The translations under genes were made by a program, and so were the position numbers. Shown one piece after another: positions 5,139 through 17,124 of a stretch of DNA of 26,750 bases (position 1 is the first letter of the stretch; each line of letters opens with the position of its first letter). Below the pieces are notes generated by a model that saw only the letters and a program-made list of their open reading frames with translations, did no database searches and was not told where the DNA came from. The stretch is from a virus. Its lineage: Duplodnaviria; Heunggongvirae; Uroviricota; Caudoviricetes. Location: the IMG/VR virus record IMGVR_UViG_2529293065_000012; one strand, written 5' to 3'.

Positions 5139-7946
5139 ATGACGGCAGAGTACATCAGGGACTGGCAACAACCGCGCCACGCAGTGGGGCGTGAAGGAAC
5201 GGGGATCCCCGCTCCTGAATCCGCGCTTTCCTCCTGGCTGGATGCCTACCGGGTAGAGAACGAGCGCTGCCAGGAAATGGCTGATGCGGCGTTCTCCGCA
5301 ACGCCGCTGGGCAACCTGATTAATAAAAGCCTGGACGCACAGGAAAAACAGGACAAAACCATCACACTGGCAGGAGACGCCAGAAAACAGGCACGCGGCG
5401 CGGTGGATGAAGCCATGGCTTCGCTGCGCCTGCTGCCGTCCTATCTGCGCGATCCGCTTATTCGCCCCCTCTCCTTCCTGCGCAAAAAACAGGAAGCCGA
5501 TCGTCAGAAAGGCAAAAAGAGCTGGCAGGCTGAACGCTACGCGCGCGGAAACCTGCGCAAAATATTCGAACGTCTGGAGCGCACCGATCACCGCTGGCTG
5601 ACACAGGGTTATCGCTCCCTTGCCGGACGCGAACGCCTGGATGATTTGCTTTACCTGCCGCAGCTCAACCAGCACCAGATACAGACGCTGGCCACCATGA
5701 CGGCGGCGATGTTCAGCAGCACCTTCGAAAAACTCTGCGATGGCTTTGGCGCGACCGATGGCGAACTGACCATGGATGTAACGCTGAAGGCGTATCAGAT
5801 GCTGGCCCGCATGGGGTTACACCTGCACGCCATGCCGCCACATTACGAAGCTCTGAACAAGAGCGATCCGGATACGGAACTGTTACCGGGCGCAATCCTT
5901 CGCCTGACCTGTGCGGAATGGTGGAAACGCAAACTGTGGCTGTTACGTTGCGAGTGGCGGGAAGAACAACTCCGCGCCGCCTGTCTGGTTTCCAGAAAAA
6001 CATCGCCCTATCTGAGCCAGGACGCGTTAAGCGAGTTTCGCGCACAGCGCGAGAAAACACGCGATTTCCTGAAAAGTTTCATGCTGGAAAACGAAGACGG
6101 GTTCACGATTGATCTCGAGACAGTGTATTACGCGGGAGTAAGTAACCCGGTTCACCGTAAGGCAGAAATGATGGCCACCATGAAGGGGCTGGAACTTCTG
6201 GCCGAAGCCCGTGGCGACAAAGCGGTGTTTCTGACCATCACCTGCCCGTCAAAATACCACGCCACAACAGAGAACGGTCATCCGAATCCCAAATGGAACG
6301 GGGCCACCATGCGCGACTCCAGCGATTACCTGGTTAACACGTTTTTTGCGGCGGTCCGCAAGAAACTGAACCGCGACGGCCTGCGCTGGTATGGCATCCG
6401 CACGGTGGAGCCTCACCATGACGGCACCGTGCACTGGCATATGATGGTCTTTGCTCATCCGGAAGAAATCGACACCATTGTGTCCCACACCCGCGATATT
6501 GCCATTCAGGAAGATCGTCACGAGCTGGGTGATGATATTACCCCACGCTTTAAGGCGGAGTACGTCGACGGCTCAAAAGGCACGCCAACCAGCTACATCG
6601 CCACCTACATCGGAAAGAACCTGGACAGCCGCGCCGTAGATGGCATCGACCCGAAAACGGGCAAGCCACGCGTTGACCACGAAACCGGAAAATCAATGGC
6701 CGAGAGCGTGGAACGCGCCATCGGCTGGGCGCGCCTTCACCGTGTCCGCCAGTTCCAGTTCTTTGGTATCCCCTCCCGTCAGGTGTGGCGTGAACTCCGC
6801 CGCCTTGCCAGCCAGATGGCACGCAACCCGGAAGGCCCGCAACGGCTGAAGGATGACGCAATGGATGCGGTACTCGCTGCCGCTGATGCCGGATGTTTTG
6901 CCACCTACATAGAGAAACAGGGCGGCGTACTTGTTCCACGCCAAGACTACCTGATTCGCACCGCCTACGACCTCGCAGATGAGCTGAACGATTACGGCGA
7001 ACAGAGCGTACAGATTTACGGGATCTGGTCGCCGCTCATCGGGGAGTCTTCCCGCGTATGCACGCATCCGGATAACTGGAAGCTGGTAAGACGCAAACCG
7101 GAAGCGGAAGACAGCTCCCACGAAAATGGTTTTGACCTTCAGGGCGGCCCTGCCGCCCCTTGGACTCGTGGCAATAACTGTCCCCGTGTACAGGAAACGG
7201 ACAACAACGGGACAGAACAGCCGGAAGAACGGCCAGCACCGTGGCCGCAGCTTCCTGACGGCGTTGACGTGAATGAATGGATGCGCTCACTGAAACGGCA
7301 CGAACGCCGGGCGCTGATGCGTTCGCTGCGTGACAAACAGGCAAAAAACAGCAGTGATGAAATGCAGAACTGGACACAGAGCCGCAAACAGCCACAGCCT
7401 TTGCCTGATAACCACGAGTTACTCGCTAAAGAATGGCGGGAGTCTGCTGAATCTCTCGGCCTGCATATCGGTGAACAGCAGATGCAGCACCTGTTACGGG
7501 GCGGCAGTCTGTACGTTGACGGCAGCATCATTGCACCGCAGGGATTTGAAATTGTACGCAAACCGGATACCCGCCCGGACAGCCGAATCACGCAGCTCTG
7601 GCAACGCCTGAGTCGTAATCACGGCGTAAGCAGCACGGAGATCCGCCATAACCCGGTCGCCAGCTATCTGGAACAACTAGAGGCATCAGACCCTGAAGCC
7701 GCCGCACGCCTGGCATCCACACTTCAGCAAGACCAGAACACCATGAAAACACCAGTTACCGTACTTTCTGACATGCTGCGCGCCATCCGCGACGCAGAGC
7801 ACGCACAGAGAATCAGTGAAACCACTGAACGCGCCCGCCGCAAAGCAGACCTGCTGCGGGGTGGCCTGAGCAGTGGAAACAAAAAACAGACAAAAACGGG
7901 ATTCACAAATCCCGTAAATGAGCAAAAAACGCGCCGCGATATATGA
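5139..7946 (+). CDS. A: Rolling-circle replication initiator endonuclease (P2 gpA family), with a long C-terminal extension
   Basis: 935 aa. HUH-type motifs (TITCPSKYHATT ... HWHMMVF) and the catalytic tyrosine region (SYIATYIGKN) match P2 A. The roughly 170 C-terminal residues are low-complexity and charged. Confidence 0.9.
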   Translation: MTAEYIRDWQQPRHAVGREGTGIPAPESALSSWLDAYRVENERCQEMADAAFSATPLGNLINKSLDAQEKQDKTITLAGDARKQARGAVDEAMASLRLLPSYLRDPLIRPLSFLRKKQEADRQKGKKSWQAERYARGNLRKIFERLERTDHRWLTQGYRSLAGRERLDDLLYLPQLNQHQIQTLATMTAAMFSSTFEKLCDGFGATDGELTMDVTLKAYQMLARMGLHLHAMPPHYEALNKSDPDTELLPGAILRLTCAEWWKRKLWLLRCEWREEQLRAACLVSRKTSPYLSQDALSEFRAQREKTRDFLKSFMLENEDGFTIDLETVYYAGVSNPVHRKAEMMATMKGLELLAEARGDKAVFLTITCPSKYHATTENGHPNPKWNGATMRDSSDYLVNTFFAAVRKKLNRDGLRWYGIRTVEPHHDGTVHWHMMVFAHPEEIDTIVSHTRDIAIQEDRHELGDDITPRFKAEYVDGSKGTPTSYIATYIGKNLDSRAVDGIDPKTGKPRVDHETGKSMAESVERAIGWARLHRVRQFQFFGIPSRQVWRELRRLASQMARNPEGPQRLKDDAMDAVLAAADAGCFATYIEKQGGVLVPRQDYLIRTAYDLADELNDYGEQSVQIYGIWSPLIGESSRVCTHPDNWKLVRRKPEAEDSSHENGFDLQGGPAAPWTRGNNCPRVQETDNNGTEQPEERPAPWPQLPDGVDVNEWMRSLKRHERRALMRSLRDKQAKNSSDEMQNWTQSRKQPQPLPDNHELLAKEWRESAESLGLHIGEQQMQHLLRGGSLYVDGSIIAPQGFEIVRKPDTRPDSRITQLWQRLSRNHGVSSTEIRHNPVASYLEQLEASDPEAAARLASTLQQDQNTMKTPVTVLSDMLRAIRDAEHAQRISETTERARRKADLLRGGLSSGNKKQTKTGFTNPVNEQKTRRDI

Positions 7947-8022: not shown

Positions 8023-8982
8023 ATGAAAATTTGTATCGACGACGGCTCCACCAACATCAAGCTGGCATGGACTGAGAACGGCGAATGCCGCAACGCCATC
8101 AGCCCGAACAGCTTCAAGTCGGAATGGTCTGCGCCGTTCGGTGTCACGCAGCCCGCGAACTACATGCTTGATGGCGTGCGCTATGGTTTTGATCCGGTCA
8201 GCGATCGCTTTGTCCAGACGACCGACACGCAATACCAGTACAGCGATGTGAATGTCATTGCCATTCATCACGCGCTGGTCAAATCAGGCATCACGCCACA
8301 GGAAGTGGATGTGGTTGTCACCCTGCCACTGAGCGAGTATTTCGACACAAACGCACAGCCGGATATGACCAACATCAACCGCAAAAAAGCGAACGTCATG
8401 CGCCCGGTGGAGTACCAGAACGGTGAGGCATTCACTATCCGTAACGTGCGGGTTATGCCTGAATCCATTCCGGCTGGCTTTAAGGCACTGGCTAACATGA
8501 GTCCGTTTGAATCCCTGCTGATTGTGGATTTAGGCGGAACCACGCTGGATGTGGCAAAGGTTCAGGGGCAACTGGCAGGTATCAGCCAGGTGTTTTGCGA
8601 TCCACACGTAGGCGTTTCTCTGATGGCCGATGCCGTACTGTCGGTGATGGCCACTAACGGTATGCGCACCAGTCACCACATCGCCAATACCATTATCGAA
8701 CATCGCCATGATGAAGCCTGGCTGCGCCAGCACATCCACAATGACGCGCATTACGCCAGCCTGATGGCGGTTATTCGTGAAAAGGAAGAAACACTGAAAC
8801 AACGCGTGATCCGCGCGCTGGCGGTTTTTTCGGGTTACGGGCGGGTGATGGTTGTCGGTGGCGGGGCGGAGATTGTGGCACCCGCTATCCGCGAAGCCTG
8901 CGGAGTTAATGCGACTTTCATCGCGGACGGGGTGCCACAGTTTGCTCTGGTTAATGGGCTGTACGCAATGGACAAGGAGTAA
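8023..8982 (+). CDS. parM: ParM/StbA-like actin-family partition ATPase
   Basis: 319 aa. IDDGSTNIKLAW, ISPNSFK, YSDVNVIAIHHAL, VMPESIPAG, LIVDLGGTTLD, GVSL and VVGGGAE align with my recollection of plasmid R1 ParM. AAGGA ribosome-binding site. Confidence 0.85.
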   Translation: MKICIDDGSTNIKLAWTENGECRNAISPNSFKSEWSAPFGVTQPANYMLDGVRYGFDPVSDRFVQTTDTQYQYSDVNVIAIHHALVKSGITPQEVDVVVTLPLSEYFDTNAQPDMTNINRKKANVMRPVEYQNGEAFTIRNVRVMPESIPAGFKALANMSPFESLLIVDLGGTTLDVAKVQGQLAGISQVFCDPHVGVSLMADAVLSVMATNGMRTSHHIANTIIEHRHDEAWLRQHIHNDAHYASLMAVIREKEETLKQRVIRALAVFSGYGRVMVVGGGAEIVAPAIREACGVNATFIADGVPQFALVNGLYAMDKE

Positions 8983-8986
8983 ACCA

Positions 8987-9301
8987 ATGACGACATCAAC
9001 CAGACGGATAAGTTTCTATCTGAAGCCAGACGCCGTCAAGAGTGAACAAGAGGCGTGCAATTACCTCGATAGCCTGCCAGCCTCCGAACGCAGCCGCGCG
9101 CAACGCGCGGCCTTTCTGGCCGGACTGGCACTCATAAAACGCAACCCAGCATTTGCCTACTGGATGGCCGAATGGCCAGAGGATAACCTCCCCTTCAATA
9201 CCATTAGCACCAAGGAAACATACCAAGATAATCCGCCTAGCGGAATTGAATGCAATTTTTATAAAATAAAAAAGAATATTCAGACCTTATTCCCTGAATA
9301 A
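8987..9301 (+). CDS. parR: ParR-like centromere-binding adaptor
   Basis: 104 aa from the ATG at 8987 (in frame within ORF 8852..9301), AAGGAG 8 nt upstream. ISFYLKPD...LDSLPASERSRAQRAAFLAGLAL parallels the R1 ParR N-terminal ribbon-helix-helix region. Lies immediately downstream of the parM-like gene. Confidence 0.7.
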   Translation: MTTSTRRISFYLKPDAVKSEQEACNYLDSLPASERSRAQRAAFLAGLALIKRNPAFAYWMAEWPEDNLPFNTISTKETYQDNPPSGIECNFYKIKKNIQTLFPE

Positions 9302-9385: not shown

Positions 9386-10228
9386 TCATGATGAAATTGC
9401 CGAAGTTTTTTTATCGTGCTGAAGTACCGCAAATGCCATCAAAACCTCAAGAGAATAGCGGCGATAATACTTAACAAAACCATAATAAAATACTCGAGAT
9501 GCAGCAAGAAAAAACAAGAAAAGAGGACCAAAAGGTAACAATCTGATATTTATATCTATTAAGTAAGATAGAGGGGCTAGACACATAATCAACCAGACTG
9601 AGGCGAGAAAAACGAATGTAATGTTTCTACAAAAACCATATAGAGCAACATAGTTTTGTATTTTCAACTGATGATTTTTCGAATGTTCATACACATAATG
9701 ATAAGCAAGACGAAAAAGATCTCCCCTCAACCCTTTGCGTCGATACAACGTAGAAACAGAAAAATTATTTATATAGCCATTTCGTATTTGCGGCCAAAAG
9801 GCCTTAATAAGTATAGGATGTAGTGTGGTTTTATGACACTCAGCTTTATCAAGAATTGATACAGGAAACAAAAAAACTCTACGAATAAAATTAAATATCT
9901 GGAATCCTGTACCACGGCGTTTTATTTTCAGGGGGTTTTTCGGGGAAAACAGATAAGTCGAAGGATATCCAAGCTTACTGTTCATGTATTTTTCAATTAA
10001 ACAGGATGATAGAATAGATATGAAGTGACCTAAAATATATGATAGAACGATCAATGTCACATACATAAACACACTTATTATTTCTTTATATTTCAAGATG
10101 TGGTTTAGAATACTCTCGACATAACCAGGGTTAATTTCAATAGAAAACAAAAAAAGGATAAACAGGAATAATCCACCTGGAATTAGATACCCCAAAAAGT
10201 CATAAAATGAAAACGGATTCTGTGTCAC
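9386..10228 (-). CDS. Polytopic membrane protein of unknown function (280 aa, about 4 predicted TM helices), second gene of an AT-rich accessory operon
   Basis: ORF track entry. Apparent GTG start at 10226-10228 preceded by AGGGGG. Hydrophobic segments near residues 10-30, 50-78, 205-226 and 233-254. Markedly AT-rich compared with flanking phage genes (by inspection, not computed). Confidence 0.7.
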   Translation of the reverse strand: MTQNPFSFYDFLGYLIPGGLFLFILFLFSIEINPGYVESILNHILKYKEIISVFMYVTLIVLSYILGHFISILSSCLIEKYMNSKLGYPSTYLFSPKNPLKIKRRGTGFQIFNFIRRVFLFPVSILDKAECHKTTLHPILIKAFWPQIRNGYINNFSVSTLYRRKGLRGDLFRLAYHYVYEHSKNHQLKIQNYVALYGFCRNITFVFLASVWLIMCLAPLSYLIDINIRLLPFGPLFLFFLAASRVFYYGFVKYYRRYSLEVLMAFAVLQHDKKTSAISS

Positions 10229-10267: not shown

Positions 10268-10765
10268 TTATTTGTTTTTCCGTAAAGGATTAGCTTTCCA
10301 TCTTCTTACTAACCATTCGAATTCTTGATATGTAGTATCCGAATTAATGCTTTCTCTGATTGCTTTAATTAATGGCTCGGCAATATCATATGTCTCTACA
10401 ACTGTTGTGTAAGATGTTCTTTTTATCATTTTTTCATCATAAATACCTTCACGAATACTTACAGCAACTCGCTCGTAAAAATTTAAAATATATTGAAATT
10501 TTCGACGCTCGGCCATTTCCTCATCTGTTATTGTACAACCATCACAAGGAAAAACATAAGAACGAAATGATTTGCCTGAACGATGCACTTGTTTCAGGGT
10601 ATGCAATGACTCTATATATTGCATATCTTGCCGACTCTCAAAAAGAAAGTTAGCCGTTTGAGTTTTCTTTGCGGTACGCACATTGTAGATAATGGTTCCA
10701 ATGGCAACCAAAACGCCAAGCAGAACAATAGCATTGCTGATGATTTGTAGTGTTATTGGGTTCAT
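10268..10765 (-). CDS. Protein of unknown function with a single N-terminal TM helix (165 aa), first gene of an AT-rich accessory operon
   Basis: ATG at 10763-10765. N-terminal hydrophobic helix (IISNAIVLLGVLVAIGTIIY) then a soluble domain of about 135 aa. AT-rich. 39 bp from the downstream gene. Confidence 0.7.
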   Translation of the reverse strand: MNPITLQIISNAIVLLGVLVAIGTIIYNVRTAKKTQTANFLFESRQDMQYIESLHTLKQVHRSGKSFRSYVFPCDGCTITDEEMAERRKFQYILNFYERVAVSIREGIYDEKMIKRTSYTTVVETYDIAEPLIKAIRESINSDTTYQEFEWLVRRWKANPLRKNK

Positions 10766-10775
10766 CCTATTTCAT

Positions 10776-10807
10776 CCATAAAAAAGGCGGGGAGCAAATC
10801 CCCGCCT
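10776..10807 (-). terminator. Intrinsic terminator / attenuator hairpin on the minus strand, just upstream of the operon start codon
   Basis: 9-bp stem (AGGCGGGGA / TCCCCGCCT, 10785-10807) with a 5-nt loop, followed on the minus strand by a U6 run (10776-10784). Confidence 0.5.
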
Positions 10808-10826
10808 CATTAGAGGTCAACGTAGC

Positions 10827-10862
10827 TTAGAAACCATCAAATTCATCATACATTTTTTTCAT
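10827..10862 (-). other. Candidate 11-codon leader ORF (MKKMYDEFDGF)
   Basis: On the minus strand, GAGGGGG lies 5 nt before the ATG. The stop is about 19 nt upstream of the terminator hairpin. Confidence 0.25.
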
Positions 10863-10942
10863 ATCAACCCCCTCATAGAAATCATAACCACGTTTTGTGG
10901 TTTTTGTGACGCATAAACTACATCAAAGGCAAGCCACGGTCA

Positions 10943-10990
10943 AATATATAGGCATGCTTACCTGCACAAAAGTGCACAAATTTGCACAAT
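10943..10990. promoter_or_regulatory. TATATAT element plus three 10-bp phased TGCACAA direct repeats (candidate promoter/operator for the minus-strand accessory operon)
   Basis: TGCACAA at 10963-10969, 10973-10979 and 10983-10989. A/T hexamer at 10943-10950. Confidence 0.35.
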
Positions 10991-11413
10991 TTTTTTGAAC
11001 GACTTTTTGCCCTTCCGGCCCGCGTGGCGGCTGGAGCCGTCAAGGATCCGTGCATGCACAAAAAAACGCGCTTTTTCTGCGCGCAGGTGACGGGGGAACA
11101 GCCCGCGTTTCAGGGGGTAAATAGCATCCCCTGAACGATGTCGCAGCGACACAACAGAATGGCTGTATTTCTCACGCTGAGCGTGAAGAATACGTGAGGG
11201 ATTCTGATTTGATGGGGTGAAAGGTAAGGCCGTCAAAATCGCACTGAGGCGGCGAGAACATGCAGTCAACGCGGTGGGATTGCGTAAGAGTCTGACCGTC
11301 GATGGTGGCGATAAACTGGAAGGCGTCGTGAAATTATCTGACTGATACAGGAGCTGGAGAGTCGGGGCATAAATTTTTTATGCCCCGGCGAAGCAGCAGA
11401 CAAGCGAAGCGCG

Positions 11414-12460
11414 TCAGGATGTGGGCAGGGTGTCTAACAGTGCGTAAGGGTTAAAGCGGATCACCTCTTCGCCAAGCCAGTCATTGATGTGCTTCATGGC
11501 CTCCATGACGGGCATCAGCTCGTTAATTGCGTAAACCCGCGCGGCCTTCTCCACATCACCAAACGCACTTTTTTCACCCGGCATCGCCCCCATCAGTTGC
11601 GGCGGAACGCGGTGCGCAGCCAGCACATCATCACGGGATGCCGCCTTAACATTCATGAACTCATCCTTTGCGGTGATCTGCTGGAACGGCAAAATTTGCA
11701 CCCCCTCTTTGCCCCCGTTGGGCGCATGAATGAGCACGTTTTTAAACGCACCACCACCACGCGCACCCTGTAGCGTTTCTTTCAGGGAGTCCATGCTTTC
11801 GCGGTTTACCTGCGCTGCACCGATGTAGATGATGCACCCGGCGTGGGATCCGTTGTCGTAATACAGTTTTCTGAACATGTCCGCCGAATGAGACAGGCTG
11901 GCCGAGAGTAATGCGCCGAGATATTCCGGCATGCCGTAGATTTCCTGGTTAATGTCCGGATTCATCAGGTGGCACACTTTGCCTGGGCGAAACTGAAACG
12001 CATCCTTGCCATCCTGCACATACCACCATGATTCAAGATCGCTTCCGCGTCGCATGTATTTCGCCAGGGCGTGCCGTAATTTAAGCGGTTCGCCGAGCAT
12101 ATTGCTTCGAAGCTCAAGGAATGCGTTACCGAACACAAACCAGTCCAGCGCCAGCGCCGAGAAATCCTGCCGGGAAAGCAGCGGGTGCGGGATGTAGCAA
12201 CCGAGCAATACATTGCGCTTAAAGTAAAGCGCAGACTGATGCCAGGACGTTTGCCGGGCGGCTCTTGCCAGACCGTACCAGTCCACCGGGGTTTCATACC
12301 ACCGCCCGTTATCAGCACAGTACATATTGTCCAGCAGGTCATGCCCGGTCAGGCGATAAGGACCATCAAATGTGAATGCACTGAGCGATGATTCTTTCCT
12401 GAGCGCATCAGCGAGATCAATGCGTGAACTCATGCGCACTTTTTTATTTTTTCTGCTCAT
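11414..12460 (-). CDS. Q: Portal protein (P2 gpQ family)
   Basis: 348 aa. Position and orientation beside the terminase ATPase gene, with ATGA overlap at 12458-12462. Length matches P2 Q. Confidence 0.9.
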   Translation of the reverse strand: MSRKNKKVRMSSRIDLADALRKESSLSAFTFDGPYRLTGHDLLDNMYCADNGRWYETPVDWYGLARAARQTSWHQSALYFKRNVLLGCYIPHPLLSRQDFSALALDWFVFGNAFLELRSNMLGEPLKLRHALAKYMRRGSDLESWWYVQDGKDAFQFRPGKVCHLMNPDINQEIYGMPEYLGALLSASLSHSADMFRKLYYDNGSHAGCIIYIGAAQVNRESMDSLKETLQGARGGGAFKNVLIHAPNGGKEGVQILPFQQITAKDEFMNVKAASRDDVLAAHRVPPQLMGAMPGEKSAFGDVEKAARVYAINELMPVMEAMKHINDWLGEEVIRFNPYALLDTLPTS

Positions 12461-14211
12461 CAGAACTCCATAACCGTGAAACGCTCGTTTTCTCCTTCGC
12501 CGCCAATTGGTTCGTTAATGACAGCAAGCATGGTTGCCCACGCAAGGTCGCCGTGGCTGATCCCCCTCGCGCGGTCCGTTTCGTAAGTGATAAAGCCGCC
12601 CGGTGTTTTCACCTTACGCACGGCGTTAAAGGCCGCGACCAGCTCGCGTTCGGCGCGATCGTATTCCCACCGCCCGGCACGCATTATTTGCAGCATTTTC
12701 AGTACCAGCGACCGTTTTGATGACAGCGTGAAGGTGTACGGAATAGCGGCAGGGAAAAACCGTTTCACTATCTGATAAACAGCCTCCCCGTTCCCGCCCG
12801 TCACATCAATGCCGATGTGTTCCACGTTGTAGCGACACGTGAACTCTTCAATGACTCTGGCCTGTTCTTCAAACTCCAGCCCCTGAACGCGTCGCGTCTC
12901 CACCGTTCGAAAACGGCCACCAGGAACAGACGGAGGAACCACCACGGACACAGCGCCGCTGTCGCCGTTGCCACTGCTGCCGTTTGCGTCATACCCAATC
13001 CATACCGGACGATTCCCCATCGGGCGGGGAGCAAAAGGTTTCCAGTCTTTCCAGTCGTCGTATCCGTCAACGCCACAGCCAATCAGGATATTCAGGTTAA
13101 ATGCCGATTCCCCTTCGCGGACAAACTCACACATATAGAGATTGAGGAACTCGTCTTCGGTGTTTTCATCACGAATTTCATCAATATCGGTGTGTTTCCA
13201 GCCGTGATTAACCACATCTTCCAGCGTGACAATTTGCCGCCACGTCCGGTCAGGGCAGATAAGCCCGTTATGCAGCGTTTTCCAGTCCACAGAAAAACGC
13301 TGGCGTTTATGCGAGGCCTTTTTCTCGTTCCAGCGGTCGCCGTTCCAGTAGGCGTATGCCTCGTGCGTTTCGGTGGATGGCGTGGAGAAGTAGGTGCGCC
13401 GCAGTCCGCTGAGGGTTGCCATAGCGCCAGCCACCTTGCGCAGTTCAGCAAAGCGACTGACCCAGAAAAATTCATCAAAATAAAAATTGCCCGTATAGGA
13501 CTGTGCCGACGCAGCAGAAGTGCCGAGAAAATGCAGCTCTGCGCCGTTGGAGAGGATGATTTTATCGCCCCCTTTCAGCTCCACATCAACTTCAGCCGCG
13601 GCCTTCTGAATAATGCTTTTAAACTGGAACGCCTGACGACGCGACGCAGACAAAAAAATCTGGTTACGCTGGTAAGGTTGCGCCACATCGTCACGCAGCG
13701 CCATCAGCAGTGCTTCCTGTGCAAAATACCAGGTCGCCCCAATCTGTCGGGATTTCAGGATCATCCTGTTACGTATCCCGGCTTCCCTGCAAAGGGTCAG
13801 GGAGTCAAACCAGCCCCGCTGATGCCACTCCAGCCTGCTGATGATTTTTTCCCGCAGTGCGGCAATCTGTTCCGGCGTGAAATGATTTTTGAGTTTTTTC
13901 GCCCGGCCTTTCTTTCCTGTGGCCGTCGCATCCGGCTGGCCATCATGCAGTTTTTTAAGCTGCCGGGTCAGCAGGTCTATTTCCTTGAAGTCACCACCTG
14001 TTTTATTCTGTTTTTCAGTGAGCTGGATGAGGCGCGCATCGATGGACTGCGTGACACGCTGCACGGGTGGCGTTTCATCCCACTGGTCGCGTTTTTTCCA
14101 CGCATAAATCGTGTTCGGGTTTATTCCCATCAGACGTGATATTTCTGCGGGCGGATAACCCTGCCAGTAAAGTTGCCGCGCACGCTGGCGCACAAAAGCG
14201 TCCTGAATCAT
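12460..14211 (-). CDS. P: Terminase large (ATPase) subunit (P2 gpP family)
   Basis: 583 aa. N-terminal MIQDAFVRQRARQLYWQGY... and length are typical of P2 P. Divergent from the O-N-M-L late operon. Confidence 0.9.
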   Translation of the reverse strand: MIQDAFVRQRARQLYWQGYPPAEISRLMGINPNTIYAWKKRDQWDETPPVQRVTQSIDARLIQLTEKQNKTGGDFKEIDLLTRQLKKLHDGQPDATATGKKGRAKKLKNHFTPEQIAALREKIISRLEWHQRGWFDSLTLCREAGIRNRMILKSRQIGATWYFAQEALLMALRDDVAQPYQRNQIFLSASRRQAFQFKSIIQKAAAEVDVELKGGDKIILSNGAELHFLGTSAASAQSYTGNFYFDEFFWVSRFAELRKVAGAMATLSGLRRTYFSTPSTETHEAYAYWNGDRWNEKKASHKRQRFSVDWKTLHNGLICPDRTWRQIVTLEDVVNHGWKHTDIDEIRDENTEDEFLNLYMCEFVREGESAFNLNILIGCGVDGYDDWKDWKPFAPRPMGNRPVWIGYDANGSSGNGDSGAVSVVVPPSVPGGRFRTVETRRVQGLEFEEQARVIEEFTCRYNVEHIGIDVTGGNGEAVYQIVKRFFPAAIPYTFTLSSKRSLVLKMLQIMRAGRWEYDRAERELVAAFNAVRKVKTPGGFITYETDRARGISHGDLAWATMLAVINEPIGGEGENERFTVMEF

Positions 14212-16323: not shown

Positions 16324-17124
16324 ATGATTACTCCTGCACAGCAACACTGGCAGAACGTGATGGCACAGCGCGCAGGCCGGGCGAATGAAGGCGTGGACCA
16401 CGCCGCGCGTACCGCGCATGAAGAGGTGCTGTATCGTCTGCGTCTGGCACAGGCCCGGCTTAAGGGCGTACAGGCCAGAAGCGCGAAAGCCGCCATCAAA
16501 AAAGAGTTGTTGCCGGACTTTTCCGGCTGGATTGAGGGAACGCTGGAGGCTGACGGTGGGCAGCAGGATGAAGTGATTGCCACGCTGATGGTGTGGGCGA
16601 TTGACTGCGGCGATCTTCCGCTGGCGCTGCGTATTGGTGCATATGTGGTCCGTCACAACCTCATCATGCCGGATAACTTTGGCCGTACTGCTGCCACAGT
16701 GCTGACCGAAGAAATCTGCAATCCGGTACTGACGCAGGCCGGGACGGATGCCGACGCGGATTTGTCCGCCTTTATCGAACCACTGGACCCCCTCCGGGAG
16801 ATTGTCACCGACCAGGACATGCCGGACGAAGTGCGCGCCAAATTATGCAAGGCGTGTGCCTTTGCCCGTCGTGGCCTGACCGATGCAGACAGCATGGCCC
16901 TGTCACTGAAGCTGCTGCGCGAAGCGATGCACCTGAACCCGAACGCAGGTGTGAAACGCGAGATTGCAACCCTTTCCCGCGCCCTGAAGAAAGCCGATTC
17001 CGCAGCCGCACCAGAAGACGCCAGCGCACAGCAGGCGCAGGACGAAAGCAGCAAAAGTAAAAAGACAACGCGGAAGCCTGCAACACGAAAAACCACCGCG
17101 ACGCAGAAGGCGAAGCGCGGTTAA
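16324..17124 (+). CDS. M: Terminase small (endonuclease) subunit (P2 gpM family)
   Basis: 266 aa. Synteny after N; basic C-terminal tail. Confidence 0.85.
   Translation: MITPAQQHWQNVMAQRAGRANEGVDHAARTAHEEVLYRLRLAQARLKGVQARSAKAAIKKELLPDFSGWIEGTLEADGGQQDEVIATLMVWAIDCGDLPLALRIGAYVVRHNLIMPDNFGRTAATVLTEEICNPVLTQAGTDADADLSAFIEPLDPLREIVTDQDMPDEVRAKLCKACAFARRGLTDADSMALSLKLLREAMHLNPNAGVKREIATLSRALKKADSAAAPEDASAQQAQDESSKSKKTTRKPATRKTTATQKAKRG

Follow-up and report, generated by a model that had tools for sequence, protein, structure and literature searches.

The DNA analysed here, hereafter the window, is the whole 26,750-nt stretch of IMG/VR record IMGVR_UViG_2529293065_000012, a P2-like (P88-like, Xuanwuvirus-type) prophage of Escherichia coli. 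On its minus strand, upstream of a cargo gene for a 165-amino acid DUF4760 protein (cargo gene 1, 10268-10765; Pfam PF15956, E 1e-34), a short leader carries an 11-codon open reading frame (ORF), here termed the micro-ORF, followed by an intrinsic terminator. We read this region as a self-contained mobile cassette and not as an attenuator of the trp type. The reading that we favour, tentatively, is that the cassette is a micropeptide gene, that its terminator keeps DUF4760 expression low, and that DUF4760 is the partner of the peptide.

The micro-ORF (10862-10827, minus strand) encodes MKKMYDEFDGF followed by TAA. A Shine-Dalgarno (SD) sequence, GAGGGGG (10874-10868, minus strand), lies 5 nt before its ATG. 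Both had been pointed out in a first-pass annotation of the window, and both are as described there. An 11-codon ORF is unremarkable by itself, and such ORFs are common by chance; judged by the comparative data on the peptide across loci, however, this one is a real element and not a chance ORF. In 19 loci collected solely via DUF4760 homology, nearly all variation in the final six codons falls at third positions (GAT12/GAC7, GAA10/GAG8, GAC9/GAT7, GGC8/GGT7 and TTC11/TTT6). This pattern indicates that the peptide is under purifying selection, and hence that the ORF is translated and that its sequence matters. Conservation of the leader ORF across homologous loci had been named in advance as a point on which the first proposal could fail; the ORF is conserved at the peptide level, with the C-terminal consensus [DE]-E-[FYN]-[DE]-[GW]-[FL]-stop. 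The Citrobacter phage Shae_phiSM carries MKKVFDEFDGF, and plasmid NZ_CP099756, which has an intact module without DUF4760, carries MKKRYDEFDGF. Variants of the peptide end include DEYDWF (Rahnella), DENDGF (Litchfieldella), DEFEGF (Providencia), EEFDGF and DEYEGL; at 40% DUF4760 identity the peptide ends in DTSGGL. An SD was found in every family member.

The micro-ORF is unannotated in every RefSeq or GenBank record examined. Gene callers skip ORFs of 8-13 codons, and few features of the locus are as strongly conserved as this ORF. Literature searches on micropeptides and small ORFs, on 'DEFDGF' and on 'DUF4760' returned nothing relevant. The peptide family, its breadth among phages and its obligatory link to DUF4760 are apparently undescribed, while a leader made of a micro-ORF and a terminator is known as a kind.

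To avoid circularity, 23 DUF4760 loci were gathered by protein homology alone (39-88% identity; 16 from genome contigs, three via distant homologues and four at 39-44% identity). All 23 have a micro-ORF of 9-21 codons, then a hairpin, and then the gene, which starts 10-25 nt past the T-run. In 22 of them the motif is C-terminal with the stop directly after it; the exception, L138, has lost the stop. These loci span P2-like, P22-like and lambdoid prophages and the chromosomes of Rahnella, Proteus, Providencia, Yersinia and a Halomonadaceae genus. Their hairpins fall into at least seven unrelated sequence families and occupy the same position; selection therefore keeps a terminator there. A further 39 viral loci are laid out in this way, with a DUF4760 homologue 40-72 nt after the micro-ORF stop. 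In Entomohabitans (L290/L291), MRYSDEYEGL, a hairpin and DUF4760 lie in the chromosome right after nrdB-yfaE, with no recognisable prophage in the 3.5 kb inspected.

In the window, the terminator spans 10808-10778 (minus strand) and consists of a GC-rich 10-bp stem with a 5-nt loop (GAGGCGGGGA/UCCCCGCCUU, 10808-10784) and a U6 run (10783-10778). None of 200 shuffled sequences matches its predicted energy of -19.4 kcal/mol (z = -4.3), which bears out the GC-rich hairpin and U-run that had been placed before the first operon gene. One clean double change, from G-C to A-U, was found in the Citrobacter phage. The DUF4760 ATG is at 10765, 12 nt past the U-run. As the first-pass annotation had argued, this leaves no room for a promoter between hairpin and gene, and for that reason transcription of DUF4760 must, on the predicted layout, pass through the terminator. 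Beyond the U-run, AUGGAUGAAA is conserved in the window (10776-10765) and its relatives. Its AUG opens an ORF of 4-6 codons whose stop overlaps the DUF4760 start (MDEIG-stop in the window, with an ATGA overlap); in L007 and L034 it gives an in-frame N-terminal extension instead. The arrangement suggests translational coupling at the DUF4760 start. In the viral contigs L070, L101 and L122, an insertion with the end sequence CATAAGCGCTAACTTAAGGGTTG is present within the terminator loop and 3′ arm, and in L122 it puts ~1.4 kb between the micro-ORF and DUF4760. This insertion looks like IS186, an element that targets G4-N6-7-C4 sites.

A reading with nothing special in it would make the hairpin just a terminator or insulator of transcription from upstream or a cos (cohesive-end site) relic, the mini-ORF a chance occurrence, and DUF4760 a product of leaky transcription. 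The frequency of 11-codon ORFs by chance would fit it, and morons often have their own terminators. Furthermore, the P2/P4 cohesive-end core GGCGAGGCGGGGAAAGCAC contains the 10 nt of the 5′ arm GAGGCGGGGA (10808-10799, minus strand) unchanged, and in L009 the identity extends to 12 nt. Linkage in 23/23 loci and selection at the codon level nevertheless speak against this reading, as do the reversed-peptide control scan given below, the presence of the module in P22-like and chromosomal settings distant from any cos site, and the terminators already present upstream. We find it scarcely credible. As a cos site, the hairpin was rejected: it lies in variable cargo and travels with DUF4760 into non-P2 contexts, and the genome end of a P88-like record, at 11007/11008 of the window, also rules it out. 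The hairpin had further been proposed to insulate the operon from the late P-Q transcript. This can be at most a secondary role, since two structures lie upstream of it: a further hairpin directly after Q, and an intrinsic terminator between the portal gene and cos (GCGCGCAGAAAAAGCGCGT then T7; 11084-11066, minus strand), which is predicted already to end the P-Q transcript.

The putative promoter of the cassette was located by comparison of 11 related loci. A -35 hexamer, TTGACC (10943-10938, minus strand), is followed at 17 nt by a -10 hexamer, TAGTTT (10920-10915, minus strand). TTGAC is invariant in these loci and the -10 is conserved as TA(A/G)TTT at fixed spacing, while the flanks vary; because of this conservation, TTGACC-17-TAGTTT is read as the sigma-70 promoter of the cassette. 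The TATATAT element (10944-10950), which had been listed as the promoter element, is present; it abuts the -35 hexamer and, by the same comparison, is not the -10. Transcription is predicted to start at ~10909-10907. An inverted repeat, ATTACC-N5-GGTAAT, overlaps the spacer and the -10 in L009, L043, L048, L090, L093, L133 and L135, and is also found at L010, L134/L022 and L145/L061. Even diverged cassettes that are not in P2-like phages retain it, and we take it for a candidate operator. The window has a degenerate copy (10916-10932) in which the symmetry is lost.

Two elements that the earlier reader had missed complete the leader. The first is a hairpin in the 5′ untranslated region, AACCACAAAACGUGGUU (10902-10886, minus strand; -7 kcal/mol, z -4.2), which relatives keep with other sequences (TTCAC-N6-GTGAA, GACTAC-N5-GTAGTC). 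The second is an anti-SD, UUGACCUCU (10820-10812, minus strand), predicted to pair with the micro-ORF SD and spacer in a helix that encloses the ORF. The predicted 133-nt RNA folds as the 5′ hairpin, the SD:anti-SD helix and the terminator (z = -3.0). Most P2-type members and one diverged member have a predicted SD:anti-SD helix; over 19 sequences, 82% of cells are paired in it, against 48-67% for the whole structure with partners slid.

Such a transcript might instead be a small regulatory RNA (sRNA), ~130 nt long, that base-pairs or acts as an Hfq-type sRNA while the ORF is incidental. Its size, its 5′ hairpin and its terminator with a U-tail are indeed sRNA-like, and Rfam gives weak, sub-threshold matches to SorX and isrP. 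However, SorX scores 19.3 bits against a gathering threshold of 46.6 and isrP 16.7 against 45, and no Rfam family comes near its gathering threshold for the leader region. Synonymous-site variation, together with the encoding of the same peptide in unrelated RNA, points to selection at the coding level. We regard an sRNA as highly improbable; the codon-level data, which are comparative, contradict both this reading and that of a chance ORF.

The layout is shared with the trp, his, pheA, pyrBI and ampC attenuators, which likewise have a promoter, a short SD-bearing ORF, an intrinsic terminator and a gene dependent on read-through. The proposal of an attenuator therefore holds for the layout and for the obligatory read-through (23/23 loci), and is not supported for a mechanism of the trp type. 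Unlike the trp and his leaders, the cassette has no run of regulatory codons (the peptides read M-x(1-5)-DEFDGF), its downstream gene is not biosynthetic, and the amino acid sequence itself is conserved. Nor is there a conserved antiterminator/anti-antiterminator pairing: when the leaders of 18 members were folded, whole and truncated, the pairings seen were local and non-conserved, and none with the 5′ arm of the terminator was conserved. In addition, the ORF ends well before the stem, its stop lying 16-53 nt ahead of it in DUF4760 loci. It is for these reasons, the missing regulatory codons, the missing competing pairing and the distance from ORF to stem, that a trp-type mechanism is not supported.

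The peptide is not confined to DUF4760 loci. Scans of viral contigs with DEFDGF-TAA and with DEFDGF-TGA each gave at least 120 matches, on at least 240 contigs together, and among the matches listed every DEFDGF-stop ORF is 8-21 codons long. The reversed-peptide control, FGDFED-TAA, gave 19 matches and 0 micro-ORFs, which argues against chance. Examples are MHDEFDGF, MKDEFDGF, MYDEFDGF, MNDEFDGF, MKKFDEFDGF, MKDEFEWCDEFDGF and MFSLRKFDAEDVDFFDEFDGF; in MKDEFEWCDEFDGF and MLDEFEGFDEFDGF the motif is doubled within one peptide. The N-terminal part is free in length and sequence, and the same peptide is encoded amid unrelated flanking RNA in many families. Contexts include lambdoid, terS-proximal and T4-like ones, and the micro-ORF is met again in hundreds of phage genomes that differ widely in type. 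Some micro-ORFs are coupled to upstream genes through an ATGA overlap, and tandem micro-ORFs also occur. The DEYDWF-stop variant is rare in viral contigs (4 matches), and the Qin prophage of E. coli K-12 has no micro-ORF of the DEFDGF type. A tblastn search with a 21-amino acid T4-like peptide, a short query of low complexity, gave no match.

In T4-like phages (Karamvirus and related), DEFDGF micro-ORFs lie between genes 55 and 47 (CC31, L129, GU323318, 1679-1744; L179, L118 and L178), and each overlaps the end of a small zinc-ribbon ORF. Acidic, aromatic sibling micro-ORFs or ORF ends also occur there (MNDEHPDF-stop, …EENWDV-stop), and a terminator-like hairpin begins 4 nt past the stop. In another phage group (L169 and ~70 similar viral contigs), MHDEFDGF or MRDEFDGF, ending in TGA, and a terminator (CTGCCGCC…GGCGGCTTT) are found directly upstream of the small and large terminase genes; L023 holds two copies. 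In other P88-like hotspot cargo (L017, 1104-1494), the start of MNDEFDGF overlaps, as ATGA, the stop of the gene for a 123-amino acid protein. The C-terminal half of that protein closely copies the zinc-finger domain of ClpX (Pfam zf-C4_ClpX, E 3e-18). Next come a hairpin and a 174-amino acid protein without a Pfam family; a relationship of this protein to DUF4760 was ruled out (hhalign probability 0.04).

Context statistics were taken from 109 distinct DEFDGF contexts among the viral matches listed. A hairpin with a T-run follows the micro-ORF in 52 of the 109, and in 52/52 of these a co-oriented ORF comes next, against 38/57 of the contexts without hairpin and T-run (Fisher p = 9e-7, with families that are not independent). 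No co-oriented ORF of at least 40 amino acids within 200 nt is present in ~17% of the 109 contexts, and 24 of them have no hairpin at all. The stop-to-stem distance is bimodal, with 0-4 nt in 21 contexts and 15-22 nt in 29.

These statistics bear on the main alternative, which we consider possible and rather doubtful, namely that the micro-ORF encodes an arrest peptide; it amounts to an updated version of the first-pass proposal. The nascent …DEFDGF would act in cis, delaying release or holding the ribosome at the stop codon, and the parked or post-termination ribosome would alter the efficiency of the terminator. Expression of DUF4760, or of terS or gene 47 elsewhere, would become conditional, perhaps on a cellular or infection signal, and the cassette would be a portable switch. 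The C-terminal position of the motif with its stop (22/23 DUF4760 loci), the free N-terminal part, which is like that of known arrest peptides, and the co-oriented gene after all 52 terminators fit this alternative. Moreover, in many families the hairpin begins 0-7 nt past the stop, so that a ribosome at the stop codon would cover its 5′ arm, and several DUF4760 terminators have an SD-like 5′ arm (AGGAGGUG, GGGAGG, GGAGG, GAGG) that could hold a ribosome after termination. Short cis-acting leader peptides of 5-8 residues are well established, as in the cat, cmlA and erm leaders and MgtL. Like TnaC, SecM, ErmCL/ErmDL, SpeFL and MgtL, the micro-ORF is very short, lies upstream of a gene and is conserved at the peptide level in the C-terminal residues by the stop. 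Unlike them, it stands before many unrelated genes and sometimes before none, it has no sequence similarity to them, and stalling is a conjecture here. In DUF4760 loci the stem lies 16-53 nt past the stop, beyond the ribosome footprint, and no conserved alternative pairing was found there. The contexts without a downstream gene or without a hairpin also sit poorly with an arrest peptide, doubled motifs and tandem micro-ORFs would be needless for a cis signal, and no sensed signal can be named. The arrest-peptide and micropeptide-gene readings are not mutually exclusive. If the peptide acts in cis, the cassette would be a portable, translation-coupled terminator switch before unrelated genes (DUF4760, terminase, gene 47). 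A further conceivable idea is ribosomal bypass as in gene 60, from the final Phe codon to the U-run; matching UUU codons are, however, a trivial consequence of any terminator.

In the favoured reading of a micropeptide gene, the sigma-70 promoter would drive a compact RNA of ~130 nt that, in order, would carry a stabilising 5′ hairpin, a strong SD, the 11-codon gene, the anti-SD and a strong intrinsic terminator. Its main product would be the micropeptide MKKMYDEFDGF, in which selection keeps the C-terminal motif [DE]-E-[FYN]-[DE]-[GW]-[FL]-COOH. The SD:anti-SD helix probably restricts initiation at the micro-ORF to nascent RNA, or stabilises the short RNA. DUF4760, predicted to have no promoter of its own, would be expressed from a minority of read-through transcripts only, and the terminator would fix a high ratio of peptide to DUF4760, by analogy with mccA-mccB. 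Orphan contexts, the DUF4760-less plasmid NZ_CP099756, doubled motifs and ATGA coupling all favour this reading and tend to speak against an obligate leader role. If it acts in trans, it would be among the smallest dedicated phage gene products, with a clear motif.

The closest experimentally dissected architecture is that of mccA-mccB. In microcin C production, the 7-codon mccA gives an abundant, ribosome-stabilised RNA of ~105 nt, at ~20:1 over the read-through transcript (Zukher et al. 2014, PMC4231749). The intergenic terminator, modulated by ribosome binding, sets the ratio of peptide to enzyme, and the scheme is conserved without sequence conservation (PMC4231749). Both systems have a single promoter, a micro-ORF with a strong SD (7 codons in mccA; 8-13 here) and an intrinsic terminator before the next gene. 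Here, however, the partner is a small helical membrane protein, in which Pfam finds DUF4760 only, whereas MccB is a ThiF-like adenylyltransferase; genes for export and immunity are absent; and the peptide, which is acidic and aromatic, invariably ends in Phe or Leu, where MccA ends in …N. The cassette is also phage-borne and known from its sequence alone, unlike microcin C.

Several points weigh against a micropeptide gene with DUF4760 as partner. The transcript, the peptide and the binding are all predictions from sequence comparison, and DUF4760 is no MccB-like enzyme. In the cytoplasm, peptides of 8-11 residues usually have a short life, and dedicated trans-acting peptides of this size are rare. 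The 52/52 terminator contexts with a co-oriented gene would fit a cis-regulatory cassette at least as well, and the bimodal stop-to-stem distance hints at a mechanical link from the terminating ribosome to the hairpin. In the covariation test of the SD:anti-SD helix (19 sequences), one-sided changes only and no compensatory pairs were found. Finally, a partner relationship would be in line with a resemblance between the peptide and [YF]QE[FY]E[WFLC]L, a motif invariant in the DUF4760 family, which also has many invariant basic residues; against it, peptide and motif show no co-variation across lineages.

A broader reading, which we judge unlikely, would have the x-DEFDGF micro-ORFs as a large unannotated family of trans-acting phage micropeptides (8-13 residues), with DUF4760 bound by its peptide as ligand or antidote and with the orphans as decoys or tail mimics. 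The AlphaFold model of DUF4760 (predicted local distance difference test, pLDDT, 93) has a long N-terminal transmembrane helix and a helical domain. In Foldseek searches, EDS1 chains of EDS1-PAD4/SAG101 complexes rank first (probability 0.9-0.99, TM ~0.55, with weak E-values). On this reading, DUF4760 would be a membrane-anchored effector, with the peptide as its labile ligand or antidote. The helical domain of DUF4760 is similar to the EP domain found in the plant immune receptors EDS1, PAD4 and SAG101. Through the terminator the peptide would stay in excess, and the cassette would work as a peptide-gated toxin-antitoxin or abortive-infection system within the P2 defence hotspot. The predicted EP-like fold and the peptide-like motif motivate, and do not prove, such a peptide-gated effector. 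The lambdoid, terS-proximal and T4-like orphan copies would be counter-defence decoys; alternatively, they would mimic an acidic, Phe-ending C-terminal tail read by a conserved pocket of a host or phage protein. Candidates for such mimicry would be the C-terminal tail of SSB (DDDIPF), the tails of T7 gp2.5 and gp4, the tails of the small subunit of ribonucleotide reductase and the IGF loops of ClpX.

A module of this kind would recall type III toxin-antitoxin systems (ToxIN), in which a terminator between a small upstream antidote gene and the effector sets their ratio and which share the mobile or defence location. Phages are known to carry mimics of such antitoxins. Unlike in ToxIN, the upstream product here is a peptide and not tandem RNA repeats, DUF4760 does not have an endoribonuclease fold, and toxicity is conjectural. 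With the old/tin hotspot of P2 the cassette shares its genomic position and a leftward cargo promoter just inside repeats that flank cos; P2 old, in contrast, has no leader of micro-ORF and terminator.

These repeats were present in the window as the first-pass annotation had reported. Three TGCACAA copies in exact 10-bp phase start at 10963, 10973 and 10983 (10963-10989, plus strand; TTGTGCA on the minus strand). TGCACAA occurs 6 times over the whole window, against 6.8 expected by chance; the phased triplet is not chance. The suggestion that the repeats bind a regulator of the cargo was not upheld. Homology to relatives with different cargo begins exactly at 10963; 14 phage records match solely from 10962-11010 onward, and so do ~866 E. 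coli genomes, the difference between 1146 that match at all and 280 that match over the full region. LR595891 and CP025901 have the same three repeats beside unrelated cargo, even oppositely oriented. P2 has three phased TGCAT repeats (AF063097, 33450-33480) beside the mapped old transcription starts, ~110-140 bp from cos, and 186 has phased TGCAT repeats near cos (U32222, ~30494-30520) although no leftward cargo gene is found there. Because they are kept with any cargo and have analogues near cos in P2 and 186, we read the TGCACAA repeats as a conserved cos-flanking feature of the P88/P2-like backbone and not as a cargo operator. They are probably a recognition site for terminase or packaging, or a host-factor site. 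This matters when hotspot systems are cloned 'with native promoter'. Taking P2 and 186 together, the TGCAT repeats lie ~100-140 bp from cos. In P2, they overlap the -35 region of the old promoter, whose -35 hexamer is poor, and a TGCATTAAAACCG box adjoining cos is common to P2 and 186.

The cos site itself is most probably at ~11008-11040. It was placed there because the LR595891 record, from a P88-like phage, begins at window position 11008 (its genome end maps to 11007/11008) and ends just past the repeats. Within this region GCGTGGCGG resembles the 186/P2 cohesive-end core. A fourth TGCACAA copy (11055-11061, plus strand) stands on the portal (Q) side of the probable cos; LR595891 and CP025901 both retain it.

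Next to cos, the gpA-gpQ interval is a known defence and accessory hotspot of P2 (Rousset et al. 2022, PMC9122126). The table of hotspot contents lists 'DUF4760 + StbA + Plasmid_stab_B + …' ~164-197 times; the arrangement is catalogued there and was neither tested nor dissected (PMC9122126). No PADLOC defence model matches DUF4760. Whether its peptide acts in cis or in trans, the micro-ORF offers a handle on DUF4760, a frequent cargo of this cos-proximal hotspot whose model resembles the EP domain of the EDS1 family. In the window, a replication gene (5139-7946) and ParM and StbB-like partition genes (8023-9301) are present, together with cargo gene 2 (9386-10228, minus strand), portal gene Q (11414-12460), terminase gene P (12460-14211) and a gpM homologue, the small terminase (16324-17124). 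Cargo gene 2 encodes a 280-amino acid multi-pass membrane protein with no Pfam family, for which PADLOC gives just a weak Csx27 match (E 4e-5). Because it is found in close relatives only, we place it outside the core cassette. Strain ZH177 is 100% identical to the window across the studied region, and another close relative, L002 (ON470599, 3818-4429), has ~600 bp extra, with a 174-amino acid ORF, between the cos-proximal region and the portal gene.

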